DNA from: Octopus vulgaris | Lineage: Eukaryota | Direction: 5' to 3' | DNA: 64,000 bases | Assembly (NCBI GenBank): GCA_951406725.2 | Contig: OX597839.1 | Location: 37,572,001-37,636,000 of the forward strand | Shown here: positions 39,298-63,060 of the stretch, in pieces | How positions within the stretch are numbered: position 1 is the first letter of the stretch | Layout of the letters: every line of letters starts with the position of its first letter | Program-made: the position numbers and the translations under genes | The notes under the pieces: generated by a model | The model's input: only the letters and a program-made list of their open reading frames with translations | The model's database searches: none | Told to the model about the DNA's origin: nothing

Positions 39298-39463
39298 ATG
39301 GCAAACCAAGGTTTGGCAGAAGAATTCTCTTATTTGTCTGTTGACGATATTCGGAAGCCACCTGCACCAAAACTTCCTCCAGCTTTACAACCCCGCCAGC
39401 GTGTCGAGCAATCACAGAACCCTGTCACTTCCCACAATTCCCATCCACAGATCTACAGAGCTG
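39298..39463 (+). CDS. LPP: First coding exon of zyxin/LPP-family LIM gene (exon 39265-39463, ATG at 39298): MANQGLAEEFSYLSVDDIRKPPAPKLPP...IYRA
   Basis: Acceptor ttttcttgtatttcAG at 39263-64; ATG in aaaATGg context; donor G|GTACAT at 39464 is phase 1 and joins in frame to the next exon. Confidence 0.75.
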
Positions 39464-42367: not shown

Positions 42368-43135
42368 TTCCTGCTGTCTTCAGACCATCTATGAGAAATG
42401 ATGAAGAACTACCACCTCCACCCGTCGTGCACTCTATGACCACTCGCTACACAGAAGACAACTTCCCCCCACCGCCACTCTTTCCTCCCCCTCCTCCGAC
42501 CACCTCCGACCTCACCCACACCACTTACTACTCTAACCGCAACGATGCCTACAACCTTCCCCCTCCCCCTCCGCCAATCGAGCATGCAACCTCTGGCACA
42601 GCCATGGCCACCCCCACTGTGTACAATCCATCCCTGCCCCCACCCTCTAGCTATCCATCAGGACAGCCACCCTACAGCAGTGTAAGCAGCAGCTACAACT
42701 CGCGGTCGGTTTCCGTGACGGCGCCGTCTTCGGCTGCGTCTTCCACCCCATCGCACTACTTGAACCAGCCGAACTACATGAACCATAGTGATCTTCCCCC
42801 TCCACCCCCGGGTCCCTCCCAGGCCGTGCCGAGCTACTCCAATGTCCACAGCAGTGCTAGTGCTGTGGTTGGCGGTGGGATTGGTGTCGGTACTCCGCAG
42901 CAGTCGGTCAGCTACAAAGCACCCGTTCAAGCGTTGCCACAGCAGCACAAATACCCGGGGTATTCGGATCCCGTCAACCCTAGCCCTCTCGCTGCTTCCA
43001 GTCCAGCAGGCAGCTACACCACGAACTCCCTACCTCGGTCCGATGGTAGGAAGGTGGGCAAAGAAGCAGAAGTAGATGCCTTGACTAGTTTGTTGATGCA
43101 AAACATTGAGTCTGCTGGGGATCCTGACTTCTTTG
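42368..43135 (+). CDS. LPP: Proline-rich exon of zyxin/LPP-family protein with EVH1-type FPPPP/LPPPP motifs and pre-LIM helix KEAEVDALTSLLMQNIESAGDPDFFG
   Basis: Acceptor gttcctctgtttcAG (42366-67) and donor G|GTAAGT (43136), both phase 1; open frame; end resembles the LPP pre-LIM segment (EDELEHLTKKML...DEYFG). Confidence 0.93.
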
Positions 43136-47154: not shown

Positions 47155-47256
47155 GAATGTGTTCCAAATGTGGCCATCGTGTGGTGGGTCCGAGCAATGG
47201 CTGTACAGCAATGGATCAAGTTTTTCATATTGACTGCTTTATCTGTGACAGCTGTG
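47155..47256 (+). CDS. LPP: LIM1 exon: GMCSKCGHRVVGPSNGCTAMDQVFHIDCFICDSC
   Basis: Long poly-T tract plus ttAG (47153-54); donor G|GTAAGT (47257); C-x2-C...H-x2-C-x2-C-x2-C LIM pattern; GCTAMDQVFH matches vertebrate LPP LIM1 as I recall it. Confidence 0.95.
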
Positions 47257-51780: not shown

Positions 51781-52273
51781 ACACAACAGAGTGTCCATAA
51801 ATTGCAGACATCACTAAATATATCTCCAATGGTTGTTATATTATTTTGATAACATAATAGGTTAGATAAGATGATGTCTATATTACAATATTACAATAAC
51901 CAATGACCGGTGGCACGTAAAAAGCACCATCCGAACCGTGGCCGATGCCAGTGCCGCCTCCACTGGTTTCCGTGCCGGTGGCAGGTAAAATGCACCAATC
52001 CGACCGTGGCCGTTGCCAGCCTCGCCTGGCACCTGTGCAGGTGGCACGTAAAAAGCACCCACTACACTCACGGAGTGGTTGGCGTTAGGAAGGGCATCCA
52101 GCTCTAGAAACACTGCCAGATCAAACTGGAGCCTGGCGCAGCCTTCTGGCTTCCCAGATCCCCGGTCGAACCATCCAACCCATGGAGAACGGACGTTAAA
52201 CGATGATGAAGATGATGATGATGATGTTGTGCATGGATAGTAATATTACCATCATGAAATTAGCATTAGCTTG

Positions 52274-52760
52274 TCTCACTCTTTCTCACGAACCCCTAGG
52301 AACCTTTTATAGAACCCTAGGGTTTTGGGGAACCCCGGTTGAGAAATGCTGGGTTAGGGTATTGCAGTCATCATTATAAGATTGTGATTTCAATTCCTGG
52401 ACTGGGCAATGCATTGTATTCTTGAGAAAATCATCTCACTCTTTCTCACGGAACCCCTAGGAACCCTTTGCAGAACCCTAAGGTTTTGGGGAACCCCGGT
52501 TGAGACATGCTGGGTTAGGGTATTGCAGTCATCATTATAAGATTGTGATTTCAATTCCTGGACTGGGCGATGGATTGTATTCTTGAGAAAATCATCTCAC
52601 TCTTTCTCACGGAACCCTTAGGAACCCTTTGCAGAACCCTAGGGTTTTGGGGAACCCCAGTTGAGAAATGCTGGGTTAGGGTATTGCAGTCATCATTATG
52701 AGATTGTGGTTTCAATTCCTGGACTGGGCGATTGATGCATTGTATTCTTGAGAAAATCAC
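52274..52760. repeat. Tandem repeat, ~160-bp unit x3
   Basis: Units start tctcactctttctcacg at 52274, 52434, 52595. Confidence 0.9.
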
Positions 52761-56505: not shown

Positions 56506-56710
56506 GGCAGACAGACAGAGAGGGAGAGCAAGAGGGAAGGACGCACATACAGAGAAAAAGACACAGAAAATATGTATGTGACCGAGAGAGAGACTGGTGA
56601 CTACTATGAGACTAGTTGCTGAGACCACAACGACAAGTGGTAACAGTGTGAAACAGAAAGTTAGTGCTCGCAGTTTACCACATCTAATGCTGGCCTTCCT
56701 TGTTGGTATC

Positions 56711-57330
56711 GACTAGTAACTGGTAACAGTTTTGTAAAACCTAGGCCGTTTTTTGTGAGGTATTGACTAGAAATTGGCTAGTTTAGTAGTACCGGTCTCC
56801 TAAGTAATGACAGTTTTCTGGGTGGTACCAACTAGTTACTGATAGTTTAGTAAAACCGAGGCCGTTTTTTGTGAGGTATTGACTAGTATTAGATAGTTTA
56901 GTAGAACCGGTCTCCTAAGTAATGACAGTTTTCTGGGTAGTACCACTAGTTACTGATAGTTTAGTAAATCCTAGGCCGTTTTTTGTGAGGTATTAACTAG
57001 TATTAGCTAGTTTAGTAGTACTGGTCTCCTAAGTAATGACAGTTTTCTGGGTGGTACCAACTAGTTACTGATAGTTTAGCAAATCCAGGGCCTTTTTTGC
57101 GCAGTGTTAAGTAACATCTAATTTACAAAATCCTGGTCCTTTACTGTGTGCTGTAGACTAGTAACTGAAAGTTTTAGCAGATTCTGGGCCATTTTTGTGA
57201 GGTGTATCATTTAGCTAAGTAAAACTAGGTCCCTAACAGGTAGTTGTCATGTAGGGCCTGGGTCTTTCTGGATGGTATAAACAAGTAAGAGATAATTTAA
57301 TAGATCTCGGGATATTTTTTTGAGGGGTGT
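56711..57330. repeat. Tandem repeat, ~115-bp unit, about 3.5 conserved plus 2 degenerate copies
   Basis: aggccgttttttgtgaggtatt recurs at 56743, 56859, 56973, with degenerate copies at ~57088, ~57187, ~57310. Confidence 0.9.
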
Positions 57331-58222
57331 TAGGGCTTGTATCAAGTAGTTTGGTTAGTTCCTGCGTCCTTCTTGTTAGATGGAACCGTGTGTGATAGAC
57401 AGCCCTCCCCCTCTCTCCCTTACCGTTTGTGTGTCTGGTTGGGTGGTCGGCATGGAGATTTGCTTTTATACTGCGATTCCAACACGTTGGGAATACCCCT
57501 TCCTTGTGTGACCATCACACCTCGCTTTTGAGTCTACATTATGTCAACTTGGAGACATGTAGTAGTTGGCGACTGAAACAGAGGATAACTACTACTACTG
57601 CTACTACTACTACTACTACTACTACTACTGGATTATACCACAATCACCATCACCATTATCAACAACATCAGCAATCTTTGCAACTATTATGGCAAAAATA
57701 CTTTTAACAACAACAATGTTTATGGTAAATGCATCACAGTAACAACAACAACAACAAACAACAACAAACATCAGCAATGACCATCGCAACAACACCAACA
57801 ATAACACTGACCGCATCGACAGTAACAATGATATCACCACCACAACAACAGCAACAAGCATAGCACACTACTGTTACAACCCAATCTCCTCCCCGACACC
57901 ACCACCACCACCACCACCGCCACCACAACAACCACAACAACTACCATAACACTAACAGCACCAATAATAATAATAATAAGAACAACAACAACAACAATAA
58001 TAATAATAATAATACCAACAACAATAATAATAACAACAACAACAAGAATAATAATAATAATAATAATAATAACAACAACAACAACAGCAACAATAACAAC
58101 AACAACAGCAACAATATCATTACAACTACTACCACTAAAATAGCACCACCGTTTGAACCTCACCTCCTCCCCTTTTACCTCCATCATTACTGCTAACAAC
58201 AACAGCAGCAACAACAGCAAGT

Positions 58223-61200
58223 ATGTTTACTGATTCTGGTACCAGATCTAACTCTAAGATGGTACAAAGTTCTGCCATGATGAACGTAATCAACATGGAA
58301 TCTCTCTCTGACTGGAAGTACAGCTACATCTTCTGTTACCAGGATTCTGCCAGCAAGACGCTCATTCTCCATGCCATCGAGTCCAAGAAGCCGCAACATG
58401 TCGCGACGGTCCTCCACGATGTCCTTCATCTTGTTGGTTTCCCCAACGTCGTCAGGAGCGAGAGCGGCCACGTGTTCGTGTCACGAGTCCTCCAGGAAAT
58501 GCGGATTTTGTGGGGCGCCTGCAGTTCGGGCCTGAATTCTACACAACAGGTCGACATGTCGAATTACTCCGGGGAAGAAGAAGCGGAGGAGGAGAATGAG
58601 GCGGAGGATGAAGATAATGGCAGCCTGATAAATAATGTGTATGTCCTGGAAAGCCTCAAAAACTGGATGATACAGCACAACAGCAGCAACTGGAGCCTGG
58701 GTGTGAAGCTGGTTCAATTTCAAGAGAACTCCATCAATCAAAACGCTAACATTGACTTTGTGTCTTCGGATAAACTGCTCACGGAACTTGCAAGTATTTA
58801 TATGCCATTTGAATGTTTAAAGAGTTTGAAAAGCAATGACGAACTAAACCAAATCCTTCACAGGACCCTTACGACAGGGCTTGAAGATTTACTATCACAA
58901 TTAGGTGTAACCCCTAAAAGGACCGTTTGCTGCAGATCGTCAACAACAAAACCCCAGGGAAAATGTACAAACGGGCATGTTGCTGATAAAAAATTCCAGT
59001 TTGAAAGAAGGGGTGTGTTGCGCTCAGATTTAGGGACCTCTACCTGCTGTAACATAAAACCTTGTGTTACAAATGAAGTATCCTCAGTAAAAGACATATC
59101 CGAGTCCAGACTCGATGGTTCTGTCCTTGGTAGGTCCATAATCCAAGACAGTGACACCAGCTCAAGGACAGCTGCAGTGACAAATGATTCTCCTGCTCAG
59201 GATTTATCATCCAATTCCATACATTCTCCTCATTCTGATTTCCACACAACCGGAATTAAATCTCAATTGGATCGTTCTGCAGCAAGTGGGGCACTTGAAA
59301 AGCCAAGTGCTGTAATTGTAGATGTTTCTTCTAATTGCCCAGATAGGCATCTACATCTTCATCATCACCATCACCATCATCATCTTCATCGATATTCTCG
59401 ACCATCTTCTCCTCGTTCCCAGCAGCATGAGCGTTTCTGGGAAGCACTTAGCAATGATGGGGAATACCAATGTGACCTTTCTCGTCACTCTGATAAATGT
59501 ACGCAGGATCTCAGTTGCAAATCGAAATGTGTGCGGGACATCATTCGGTTTATGGAGTTGCAGTCTTGCCAGTCCAGTAAAAACAAAATATCCTCGACCG
59601 CTGATAAAAAGTTGCAAAATCAATCCCTGGATGATTCAGCGAATTCTTCCCTTGATGGAGACAGTGGTCCCAGTCAAATGCTCAGCCAGTCTATATCAGA
59701 AACACCAGTTCAAGTGACCACCCTTCCTGCTTTAAATATGAGCAACAGCCCTGTCTGTGTTGCCGACACGGGTGACAGGACTCCGGATCAGGATTGGGTT
59801 TCTTGTGGTCAAATAGCCACTCATTCCTGTTTGGACATCGGTCAACCTTCACTTGATAACAGAATCGATGATGAAACACCTGTCCAGACTGCATTGCACG
59901 TGCAGCAAATATCGGCACCAACTGATGTGTGGAATGAAGATGAAAATAATTTTGCAAAGAACTTTACAGAAGGTGCATTGAACCGTGAAGAGACAGCATT
60001 GAACTGTGCAGAGAATACATCGTCACAGACGTCGAGAAATGATCTTACATCACCATCGGTTAACATAGGGGAACGGTGCTTTGTTTACAGCACCAAGAGG
60101 GGTTCTGCGAAGGCTTTTGTTTCTTTAAGTCGGAGTTCAAGTTTAACTGAGATTAATACACCTATGACCTGCATATCAGTGCCCCCTTGTAGCATTCCTG
60201 AAATACAGAATCCTGTTGATTTGTCCACTGTCGAAAATTCTGATAAATTCCAGGATTCACAGTGCTTGCTTAAAGTTCAGGACATTGTAAAAAAACTGGA
60301 AATATCCAACGCGAAATGTTCAGACTGTGAGGATTTTAAAAAGAACAGGAAAATTCCTGAAAGAGCTAGCAACATCGGAAATATCATAAAACAGCTGGAA
60401 TCATTTGCAGGACCTCATCCAAAGTGGAGAACTTTGAGAATAATTGGTCAAAGCTGCGAGGACTTGAATAATCTTGGTAAGGACTGTGATGTGAGCAGTT
60501 GTGCTTCTGATGGGTCCATCGTGTCGGGGAATACTTCGTTGTCAGGCGATGATGAAACTGAGGAAGTGGAGTTACCAAACGATCTACTTGTGCAGAAGCT
60601 GGACACTGGTCTTGTCTTAAGCATTGATGACCAGTCCTCACCTGACCACAGGTGTTTAACGCGGAAGGATTCTAATCAGTTGATTGAGGCCTCAGATAAT
60701 TATGACACTGATGATGTTGGTCATGGAAATGATGATGATGATGACAGGTGTCATGATTATCATAAAGTTAATTACAGCAATGATGTTGATGATGATGATG
60801 ATCATATCTGCAGTGATGGTGCCCCTGATAAAGTGAAATACGTGGATGAGAAAAAGAACATCAAAGAACGTCACTTTTCCAGTTGTTCCACTTTAAAGCT
60901 TTCTAATTCAGAAAACTTTATCGACTCATTATCCAATAATGACACTGACGATGATGATGTTGATGATGATGATGATGATGATGATGTTGATGATGATGCT
61001 TTTACTTATACGGAAGAACTGAACCAACGCATAAACAAAGTCATTTACCGTCTCAAGTCAGAATCCGATATGCCTGACTACCTGAAGGATGAAGATTTCG
61101 GAGAATGTTGCCAAGACAGCAGTATTGGCGGCATGTCTCAGAACACAACTGCCGATGAGATATCAATGTCACAGGAGGCAGGTTTCCATGGAAACAGGTC

Positions 61201-61996
61201 AACCGACGCGGACTGTGCGGACCCTGTAACTCCTACCAATGCTGACCCGCCTCAGTGTTTCCCAAGCAAACTCCGCACCTCTCCTTCTTGCTACAATCTC
61301 AACTCCTACATCTCGACGAGTTATTTCTGTGAGAGCAGCCAAGACGGTGCCTATGTCAAACCTAACATCTGTGAAAGTTTCAATGAGGTTTCAAACCCAG
61401 TCCCGTCCGATGGAGATCACGTATCTTTAAATCACATCCACAACAACCCTAACTCTGTCAATTTGAGTACCCCCTCTAACAGACTCGAACCCCTTACACA
61501 ACAACGGTCCAGCACATGCACCACAGTCATCCACACCCCATCTTGGTACGTCCCTTCTTATGAAAACCCTAAACAAATCACAAATCCAAATGACAATCAC
61601 AGTGAGATGCCCTTCCTCACGGACATTGAGCAGAAAATAAAGCAAGCCCTACAGGAACTCGAGTCTGTGGATTTCTGCCGTCACCTGACATTCGACAGTC
61701 TCTGTCCCACATCAGTATTGTTCAATGAGGGTGGTGGGGCAAAGCCGGAATGCATTTCATTTCCTCAGTGCAAGCAGTGCGAGTGCGATGGTGCATCACA
61801 TTGCCAGAAGTGCAACTATGCGCTGCCACATCAGCTGCAGGATCACTGCTACTTGTACTGCCAGTTGTGCAGTCTCTTCAACAAACGCCTCGTTGCAACT
61901 CAGGAACAATTTCATTATCAGGTTTATGAGAAAAGTAAGGAATTTTCTTTTTATGTCAATTTTTTTTACACGTTTCTCTTGTTTTTGTATTATTAA
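58223..61996 (+). CDS. 1257-aa ORF: degenerate KRBA2/SCAND3-like integrase core (aa ~10-215), long Ser/Asp-rich region, C-terminal Cys/His finger; exon probably ends at donor 61934/61935
   Basis: 3.77 kb without a stop in AT-rich DNA; motifs YIFCYQD..SK.LILH.IESK....VA..L.DV...VGFP.VVRSESG..FV..VL.EM..LW and NW....NSSNWSLGV..VQF align by eye to KRBA2-type integrases; His and Asp repeat tracts stay in frame. Confidence 0.88.
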   Translation: MFTDSGTRSNSKMVQSSAMMNVINMESLSDWKYSYIFCYQDSASKTLILHAIESKKPQHVATVLHDVLHLVGFPNVVRSESGHVFVSRVLQEMRILWGACSSGLNSTQQVDMSNYSGEEEAEEENEAEDEDNGSLINNVYVLESLKNWMIQHNSSNWSLGVKLVQFQENSINQNANIDFVSSDKLLTELASIYMPFECLKSLKSNDELNQILHRTLTTGLEDLLSQLGVTPKRTVCCRSSTTKPQGKCTNGHVADKKFQFERRGVLRSDLGTSTCCNIKPCVTNEVSSVKDISESRLDGSVLGRSIIQDSDTSSRTAAVTNDSPAQDLSSNSIHSPHSDFHTTGIKSQLDRSAASGALEKPSAVIVDVSSNCPDRHLHLHHHHHHHHLHRYSRPSSPRSQQHERFWEALSNDGEYQCDLSRHSDKCTQDLSCKSKCVRDIIRFMELQSCQSSKNKISSTADKKLQNQSLDDSANSSLDGDSGPSQMLSQSISETPVQVTTLPALNMSNSPVCVADTGDRTPDQDWVSCGQIATHSCLDIGQPSLDNRIDDETPVQTALHVQQISAPTDVWNEDENNFAKNFTEGALNREETALNCAENTSSQTSRNDLTSPSVNIGERCFVYSTKRGSAKAFVSLSRSSSLTEINTPMTCISVPPCSIPEIQNPVDLSTVENSDKFQDSQCLLKVQDIVKKLEISNAKCSDCEDFKKNRKIPERASNIGNIIKQLESFAGPHPKWRTLRIIGQSCEDLNNLGKDCDVSSCASDGSIVSGNTSLSGDDETEEVELPNDLLVQKLDTGLVLSIDDQSSPDHRCLTRKDSNQLIEASDNYDTDDVGHGNDDDDDRCHDYHKVNYSNDVDDDDDHICSDGAPDKVKYVDEKKNIKERHFSSCSTLKLSNSENFIDSLSNNDTDDDDVDDDDDDDDVDDDAFTYTEELNQRINKVIYRLKSESDMPDYLKDEDFGECCQDSSIGGMSQNTTADEISMSQEAGFHGNRSTDADCADPVTPTNADPPQCFPSKLRTSPSCYNLNSYISTSYFCESSQDGAYVKPNICESFNEVSNPVPSDGDHVSLNHIHNNPNSVNLSTPSNRLEPLTQQRSSTCTTVIHTPSWYVPSYENPKQITNPNDNHSEMPFLTDIEQKIKQALQELESVDFCRHLTFDSLCPTSVLFNEGGGAKPECISFPQCKQCECDGASHCQKCNYALPHQLQDHCYLYCQLCSLFNKRLVATQEQFHYQVYEKSKEFSFYVNFFYTFLLFLYY

Positions 61997-62215
61997 CCCT
62001 TTAGTGTTCAGATTATTCAATCAAACATAATGCTTATTGATTCCCATTGATTTGAATTAATCATGCATTATCTCATATCTTCAAGATCTTAATGATGTAA
62101 TTACTTAATGTAGAATAACATTGTAGGGTAGGTGTGAGGGCCTGGATCTGGTCAGTTTGAACATAAAACAGATTAACTATTTTGGCCGGATATGGCCGGT
62201 TTAAATACTAAAGGG
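61997..62215. mobile_element. piggyBac-like MITE
   Basis: TTAA|CCCTTTAG...CTAAAGGG|TTAA; related pieces at ~30928 and ~42005-42095. Confidence 0.85.
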
Positions 62216-63060
62216 TTAAGGGGAGGAGGTATGATGTTATCGTCTTTGCTTTCTCTCTTTTTATATGTATCATCATCATCATCATCATCGTTTGATGTCT
62301 GCTTTCCATGCTAGCATGGGTTGGACGATTTTGACTGAGGGCTGGCGAACCAGATGGCTGCACCAGGCCCCAATCTTGATCTGGCAGAGCTTCTACAGCT
62401 GGATGCCCTTCCAACCACTTCAAGAGTGTAGTGGGTGCTTTTTACCTGCCACCGGCACGGGGCCAGTCAGGTGGTACTGGCAACGACCTCGCTCAATTCT
62501 TTTTACACATGCCACTGACACAGGTGCCAGTAAGGTGACGCTGGTAACGATCACACTCGAATGGTGCCTTTTACGTGCCACTGGCACAGAAGCTGGTATA
62601 TATGTATATGTCGTATGTCTGGCTCAAACAGTTTCATTTGTATCATTATCTCCACATCTTCTCACTTGGATTCCCCTTACAGTGATTCTTTACCCCATAG
62701 ACTTAGTTCCCACTGCAGATTTTGGATTGTAAGTTCAAATCATTTCAGCGCTATTAAGTGTTTTCTATATCGAGCATCTCTGGATTTCATCTGTTGACTC
62801 TGTATGTGTGTATGTATGTATGTGTGTATATATATATAAATATATATAAATAGATGAGTGTATTTTTCCCTTGTTAACAATTAACATGGAAAAAATAGAT
62901 AAATAGTTACCAGGGTAGCAAAAAATCACACAAGTAAAGAGGTTGTAGCTCCTTGTTTTTAAAGGTAGAAACTTTGGGTTTACGTGGAATAATGTCAGTG
63001 AAATCTTCAAAACATGTGTCGTAAGTAAAAGTATTTGAATTATACCTGCGTTAAACTCCA

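Follow-up and report, generated by a model that had tools for sequence, protein, structure and literature searches.

KRABINER, SETMAR and CSB-PGBD3 are host-transposase fusion genes (Cosby et al., bioRxiv 10.1101/2020.05.07.082677). A separate group of DNA transposons, GINGER2, is the origin of SCAND3 and KRBA2 (PMC3575427), and GINGER2 transposases combine an H2C2 finger with a DDE core (PMC2836005). Among the LIM-domain adaptors, human LPP carries VASP sites and an export signal ahead of its LIM domains and binds PDZ domains through its C-terminal tail (PMC546208). In mammalian zyxin, full binding to strain sites needs three tandem LIM domains, and two bind weakly (bioRxiv 10.1101/2020.03.06.980649).

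How does the octopus locus compare with these systems? In the window, a 64,000-nucleotide stretch of the Octopus vulgaris genome, we consider it highly probable that a 3.7-kb exon with a GINGER2/SCAND3-type transposase at its front end, lying in an intron of a zyxin/LPP-type gene, is spliced to five LIM exons and likely serves as an alternative first exon. Transposase-derived and host domains are joined in frame, contigs that are presumed to be RNA cross the junction, and the exon is under purifying selection. With the fusions described in the main text of Cosby et al., the locus shares an intronic transposon, alternative in-frame splicing to host domains and purifying selection, and fusion and parental transcripts likely coexist. 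In KRABINER, as presented there, the host exons come first and the transposase gives the acceptor, whereas in the octopus chimera the transposase exon comes first and gives the donor. The hosts differ as well, the octopus one contributing a cytoskeletal LIM adaptor where KRABINER has a KRAB-type domain. The main text of that tetrapod survey has no mention of Ginger or LIM, and its supplements might differ.

SCAND3 and KRBA2 have the same transposase family at their core and, like the octopus exon, belong to single-copy chimeric host genes, but a SCAN or KRAB domain precedes the core in the accounts of PMC3575427, whereas the octopus core is N-terminal. Unlike theirs, the octopus core has lost the H2C2 head and two Asp residues and is followed by ~950 low-complexity residues and then by LIM domains. 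The octopus domestication is likely independent of SCAND3 and KRBA2. The nearest isoform logic is that of Caenorhabditis elegans ZYX-1b, in which an alternative first exon also drops the proline-rich region and the resulting isoform has a distinct role; as described in PMC3623643, ZYX-1b gains 5 residues and keeps three LIM domains, whereas the octopus form gains 1237 residues and keeps LIM2, LIM3 and half of LIM1. The nearest architecture is that of the HMGA2/LPP fusions, which together with MLL/LPP place a foreign N-terminus on LPP LIM domains in tumours and are mainly nuclear according to PMC546208. These fusions arise by somatic translocation and bring AT-hook DNA-binding domains, whereas the octopus fusion is germline and selected and has no demonstrated DNA-binding domain.

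The same protein, 96% identical over the large-exon ORF, is modelled in RefSeq at Octopus sinensis LOC115224746, as RefSeq isoforms X1 and X2 (XP_029651497.1, 1404 aa; XP_036369609.1, 1332 aa) joined at the same codon. The locus is named 'uncharacterized', LIM is its sole Pfam domain, and the transposase origin does not figure in its name; the entries are predictions and not independent proof of a protein. The literature on octopus zyxin/LPP, cephalopod domesticated transposases and LIM-transposase fusions yielded no published description of the octopus fusion or of LOC115224746. The main text of a screen for TE-host domain pairs (PMC12062965) has no mention of LIM, octopus, cephalopod, rve or Ginger, and its supplement might list the chimera. 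The chimera sequence is already in RefSeq; its fusion nature and transposase origin are undescribed in the literature searched.

The host gene and the chimeric junction

By its sequence, the host gene falls within the zyxin/LPP/TRIP6 group (Table 1). Among PDB sequences, TRIP6 matches both LIM parts best, with 1x61 as the top match of the exon that encodes the first half of LIM1. In the genomic frames, the likely first coding exon joins in frame to the acceptor at 42368 and on to the LIM1 exon without a stop. The five downstream exons lie outside the window (G000:C26:37643868-37650727) and encode the rest of LIM1, followed by LIM2, LIM3 and the C-terminus. The intron also holds a ~177-bp unit in roughly three repeats, judged by eye, at 52250-52760.

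Table 1. Features of the zyxin/LPP-type locus and its transposase-derived exon (window numbering, extended beyond 64,000 for the downstream exons)
Feature	Position	Strand	Remarks
Likely first coding exon of zyxin/LPP/TRIP6-type gene; Met 39298, phase-1 donor	39298..39463	+	genomic frame
Proline-rich exon ahead of the LIM region; motifs FPPPP x2, LPPPP x3	42368..43135	+	absent from chimera
Exon for first half of LIM1, phase-1 donor G/GTAAGT at 47256/47257	47155..47256	+	Pfam LIM E=7.5e-6
Candidate promoter/5' end of alternative transcript: single-copy stretch	56590..57580	+	one genome match; inferred
In-frame TGA 58154-58156 and CAA/CAG repeat with proposed acceptors	58154..58222	+	likely 5' UTR
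Coding part of alternative exon, 1237 codons + 1 nt	58223..61934	+	from Met 58223
SCAND3/KRBA2-type (GINGER2) transposase core, residues ~16-230	58268..58912	+	phmmer, alignment A1
Likely disordered, Ser/Asp/Asn-rich stretch of ~950 residues, carrying a short hydrophobic motif in four copies	58913..61744	+	no Pfam family
Cys/His-rich exon end	61745..61934	+	last 66 residues unchanged from O. sinensis
Used phase-1 splice donor GTAAGG	61935..61940	+	sequence, junction contigs
Young high-copy TTAA-flanked MITE, in intron; supplies read-through stop	61993..62219	.	TTAA-CCC...GGG-TTAA ends
Five downstream LIM exons	71868-71935, 73285-73332, 75734-75864, 76241-76361, 78595-78727	+	AG/GT ends

The initial annotation had proposed that a donor at 61934/61935 (AAA A/GTAAGG), sharing its phase with the LIM1 exon donor at 47256, could fuse the large exon in frame to the downstream LIM exons. 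Both donors are indeed phase 1, the former within a 1279-aa stop-to-stop frame (58157-61996), and they compete for the same downstream acceptor; the fusion itself is borne out by junction contigs in four runs and by the RefSeq model. Just three of the ORF's GT sites agree with the donor consensus at 7 of 9 positions or better, and the spliced one is among them, which is more than chance. Contigs were examined from five of 24 listed runs (X1, X5, X6, X10 and X17), all presumed RNA, with none on record as RNA and X17 unlabelled. The exact junction from 61934 to the downstream LIM exon occurs in one contig each from X1, X5, X6 and X17, which represent four studies (P1, P2, P3 and P6) and two organisms (A and B), while run X10 has zero cover there. 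All four contigs diverge from the genomic sequence at 61935 with an identical 29 letters. Within the 184 kb examined, these letters have a single occurrence, at 71869-71897; the match is offset by one base because 61935 and 71868 share a G. The check proposed for this junction, run here on contigs, placed the acceptor at 71868, 9.9 kb downstream and beyond the window, so that the join removes a GT-AG intron of 9933 nt. A second proposed donor, at 61921, was rejected: it is phase 0, its splicing to the LIM exons would end the frame at residue 1273, and it is used in none of the listed contigs.

The junction contigs align over 284-768 letters and run unbranched into the LIM exon at a depth of 3.7-11.5, which is no measure of expression; contigs also drop rare variants and cannot reveal the start of transcription. 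Each of the four ends precisely at the 30th letter of the LIM exon, the pattern predicted when another path merges in a graph of 31-letter words, which we take to be the word size used to build them. That other path probably comes from the normal LIM1 exon, although intron retention could produce it too. Contigs cover the large exon in 30 of 30 bins in both X6 and X17, none of them spanning it whole or tying its 5' end to the junction at 61934. Joined through 61934, the genomic exons read 1403 residues without a stop, and all 166 residues of the chimera's tail are identical to the O. sinensis tail (166/166).

Origin and composition of the exon

The phmmer search returned 295 relatives of the exon at E<=1e-3, the best at E=2e-13. 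Besides P0004, an unnamed ENA protein, seven relatives were scanned; rve was present in 7/7 and H2C2 in 5/7, and one is a SCAN-rve-Znf_SCAND3-hAT protein. Pfam assigned no family to the whole ORF, and its rve model matched the N-terminus at E=0.018, a score below the cut-off. In a protein-cluster atlas, rve clusters ranked first for the exon (0.94), and the profile of relatives matches integrase structures. Since the exon's own rve score is below cut-off, homology to the transposase rests on the phmmer hits and the atlas score. Its likeness to SCAND3, taken with the origin of that gene (PMC3575427), indicates that the core belongs to GINGER2.

Alignment A1 has 75 rows, of which 73 relatives were counted. 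The first catalytic Asp is replaced by Asn21 and the second by Glu80, opposite which 57/73 and 58/73 of the relatives, respectively, have Asp; the third catalytic position, beside an acidic insertion, is ambiguous. The H2C2 motif, found in 42/73 relatives, is absent from the chimera, in which 20 residues of ORF precede the first catalytic position and an in-frame stop lies further upstream. Measured against an active GINGER2 transposon, the locus has the homologous DDE core and lacks the intact D, D, E and the H2C2 zinc finger. With two Asp residues changed and the H2C2 head missing, the core is likely catalytically dead. The earlier description of a dead integrase was thus right as to an integrase-type origin and changed catalytic residues, but the relic is of a GINGER2/SCAND3-type DNA transposase and not of a retroviral integrase. 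Likewise, 'integrase-derived exon' applies to the first ~230 residues, the part whose transposase origin is demonstrated.

In searches that give a lower bound, the core is single copy, and the broken transposon copies in the genome are 24-26% identical to it. The family is present in this genome at L015, L016 and L017 (G000 C8, C20 and C2), where broken SCAND3/KRBA2-type copies retain pieces of H2C2, rve and a SCAND3-like zinc finger. As for terminal inverted repeats, there are 64 inverted pairs, and the longest 25 consist of simple repeats of CAT/GAT type. In beetles, proteins P0005 and P0006 contain several tandem degenerate SCAND3-type cores, possibly another domestication, and a member of the P0006 cluster is labelled THAP-type by UniRef.

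Beyond the core, the four hydrophobic motif copies (59531-59554, 60275-60298, 60374-60397 and 61031-61054; residues 437, 685, 718 and 937) may be binding motifs, the first being common to P0004. The chimera ORF contains no FPPPP or LPPPP motif, and Pfam matches none of the 90 residues across the new junction. Two explanations for the Cys-rich 3' end were tried. A decayed copy of the LIM1 exon, suggested by an atlas lead (0.88), was rejected, since shuffling gave p=0.40 at the DNA level and p=0.23 at the protein level and Pfam found no LIM match; an origin as the transposase's C-terminal zinc finger is not supported, the end being equalled in score by 171 of 2000 shuffles. RefSeq isoform X2 is without 72 residues between two Asp runs (window ~60730-60997), which may mean that a short intron lies within the exon or that the repeats were misaligned; contigs of X6 and X17 cover this region except for a masked repeat.

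Selection and relatives

The large exon is under purifying selection, with a pN/pS of about 0.23. The 33 listed differences to run X6 comprise 18 synonymous and 15 non-synonymous changes (pN/pS 0.23, p=3e-5); within the transposase core the counts are 10 and 7 (pN/pS 0.17, p=4e-4). These values come from two X6 contigs of a very close species, may include polymorphism, and span close species, as against >50 My in Cosby et al. Twelve of the 14 changed codons agree with the O. sinensis protein. Against that protein, the exon has 43 amino-acid differences in 1237, one of them in the last 137, with no stop and no frameshift.

How old is the domestication? P0004 is 56% identical over 88 core residues, the other 149 matches listed being <=40%, and has one repeat motif outside the core in common with the exon (unpicked tail-to-tail shuffle p=0.012). 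By sequence, P0004 is likely a distant orthologue, and its identity together with the motif outside the core suggests an older domestication. Word-based protein searches, which are weak for distant relatives, returned only the O. sinensis cluster and no named orthologue from another cephalopod. A LIM-like motif is present in 3 of the 153 proteins compared, none of them a transposase hit, and these yielded no LIM-fused homologue outside O. sinensis.

Alternative readings of the exon

Is the large exon a first exon or a cassette? The initial annotation allowed either an alternative first exon or a 3729-nt symmetric cassette entered through CAG sites at 58205, 58208 and 58217. These sites are phase 1, as it had stated, and lie inside the CAA/CAG repeat, with ctaac and a pyrimidine tract upstream; all three acceptors (58206, 58209 or 58218), paired with the donor at 61934, would stay in frame with the LIM1 exon, reach the normal stop and place the cassette inside LIM1 of a full-length LPP-type protein. 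Yet contigs of X6 and X17 reach 137 and 139 letters beyond 58209 in the upstream direction, unspliced and with no break at 58206-58218, and of the 30 upstream letters compared 29 equal window 58174-58202, that is, the proposed branch point and pyrimidine tract. The organism-B contigs are moreover 6 nt shorter at the repeat and retain one CAG of the three, and neither RefSeq isoform in the cluster has the proline-rich region, both beginning at Met 58223. The cassette, although frame-compatible, is hence improbable, and the unspliced upstream letters and the RefSeq start support the alternative first exon. Disruption of LIM1 would occur in the cassette form, as had been suggested, but is not peculiar to it, since the first-exon form also halves LIM1. 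The stretch 58154-58222 is likely 5' UTR because it is read unspliced in the organism-B contigs, which could be pre-mRNA, and the TGA at 58154 leaves no in-frame entry from further upstream. It is conceivable, if on balance unlikely, that the large exon is a second exon, preceded by an unseen non-coding first exon and entered through an acceptor upstream of about 58070, with the protein unchanged. The contigs did not reach the 5' end, those of organism A extending 504 letters (X1) and 30 letters (X10) upstream of 58224; no joint was seen, however, and the exon is immediately preceded by a single-copy stretch that would suit a promoter, a weak point against a second exon. Inside this stretch, at 56728-57099, a 114-bp unit is repeated 3.2 times with 91% match, possibly as a regulatory element.

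The other end of the frame bears on whether the exon could stand by itself. Its stop, TAA at 61994-61996, lies inside TTAA at 61993-61996, where a 227-bp element begins. With a TTAA target duplication, CCC...GGG inverted ends and many copies, the element has the hallmarks of a piggyBac-type MITE, which we take it to be from its ends; first-look candidates number 1968 in the genome, and the 40 scored, its own copy included, are 98-100% identical. The summed depth of this MITE in the examined runs is very high. As the initial annotation had surmised, the ORF end is read-through beyond the donor at 61934, since no listed contig continues from the exon into the intron (61936-61992) and the stop belongs to the TTAA of the young MITE. 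That the ORF, open to 61996 by itself, is a free-standing nested gene whose splicing to LIM exons is a minor leak would be hard to reconcile with these observations, with the unbranched passage of the junction contigs into the LIM exon, and with final residues, after 61934, that come from T-rich intron-like DNA; we regard a nested gene as most improbable. Neutral exonization of transposon debris, transcribed without a selected function, fits the low depth of the junction contigs and the lack of a recognisable domain in most of the exon. It is very improbable all the same, given the pN/pS, ~1237 codons that are open in two species, a single-copy core so far from the broken genome copies that it must have stayed open while diverging, and a likely distant orthologue in P0004.

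Predicted isoform and implications

On the alternative-first-exon reading, a promoter upstream of about 58070, within the intron, would drive a transcript in which the large exon replaces three upstream exons and is continuous with the five LIM exons. Translation from Met 58223, or from Met 58259, which has the better start context, would yield a 1,403-residue hybrid. We hold this structure of the fusion transcript with considerable confidence. The predicted isoform would be a scaffold rather than an enzyme, having exchanged the proline-rich N-terminus and half of LIM1 for the transposase core and ~950 disordered residues. Three intact tandem LIM domains are not present in it, the first half of LIM1 sitting on the skipped exon 47155-47256. 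With half of LIM1 and no VASP-type motifs, the isoform is thus predicted to be a poor strain sensor, which would bind strained actin weakly and recruit no actin-repair factors. It would retain LIM2, LIM3 and the C-terminal TTEL and so share, or compete for, the partners of the normal isoform, and the dead transposase fold and Cys-rich end would serve as new interaction modules. These functional predictions rest on mammalian zyxin and LPP, and a role as a strain-insensitive scaffold or competitor, possibly nuclear, is put forward tentatively.

What would such a fusion mean? In the transposase-capture cases compared, transcription factors were built from host N-terminal domains and a transposase; the octopus layout is reversed and its host is a cytoskeletal adhesion protein. 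Junction contigs support the fusion in two octopus lineages, and the exon is under selection although it has lost two catalytic residues and the zinc-binding head. The 'uncharacterized' RefSeq name conceals an LPP/zyxin-type gene. If the reading is true, a cytoskeletal mechanosensor captured a transposase in the orientation opposite to that of the compared fusions. More speculatively, an old cephalopod domestication may have made a GINGER2 transposase into a giant N-terminal zyxin/LPP module, uncoupling the LIM2-LIM3 platform from actin-strain sensing and VASP recruitment and giving a natural competitor or nuclear form. Transposon-driven protein novelty in cephalopods can be tested at this locus, which also provides a natural experiment on what a zyxin-family protein would do once its proline-rich arm is gone and two and a half LIM domains are left.
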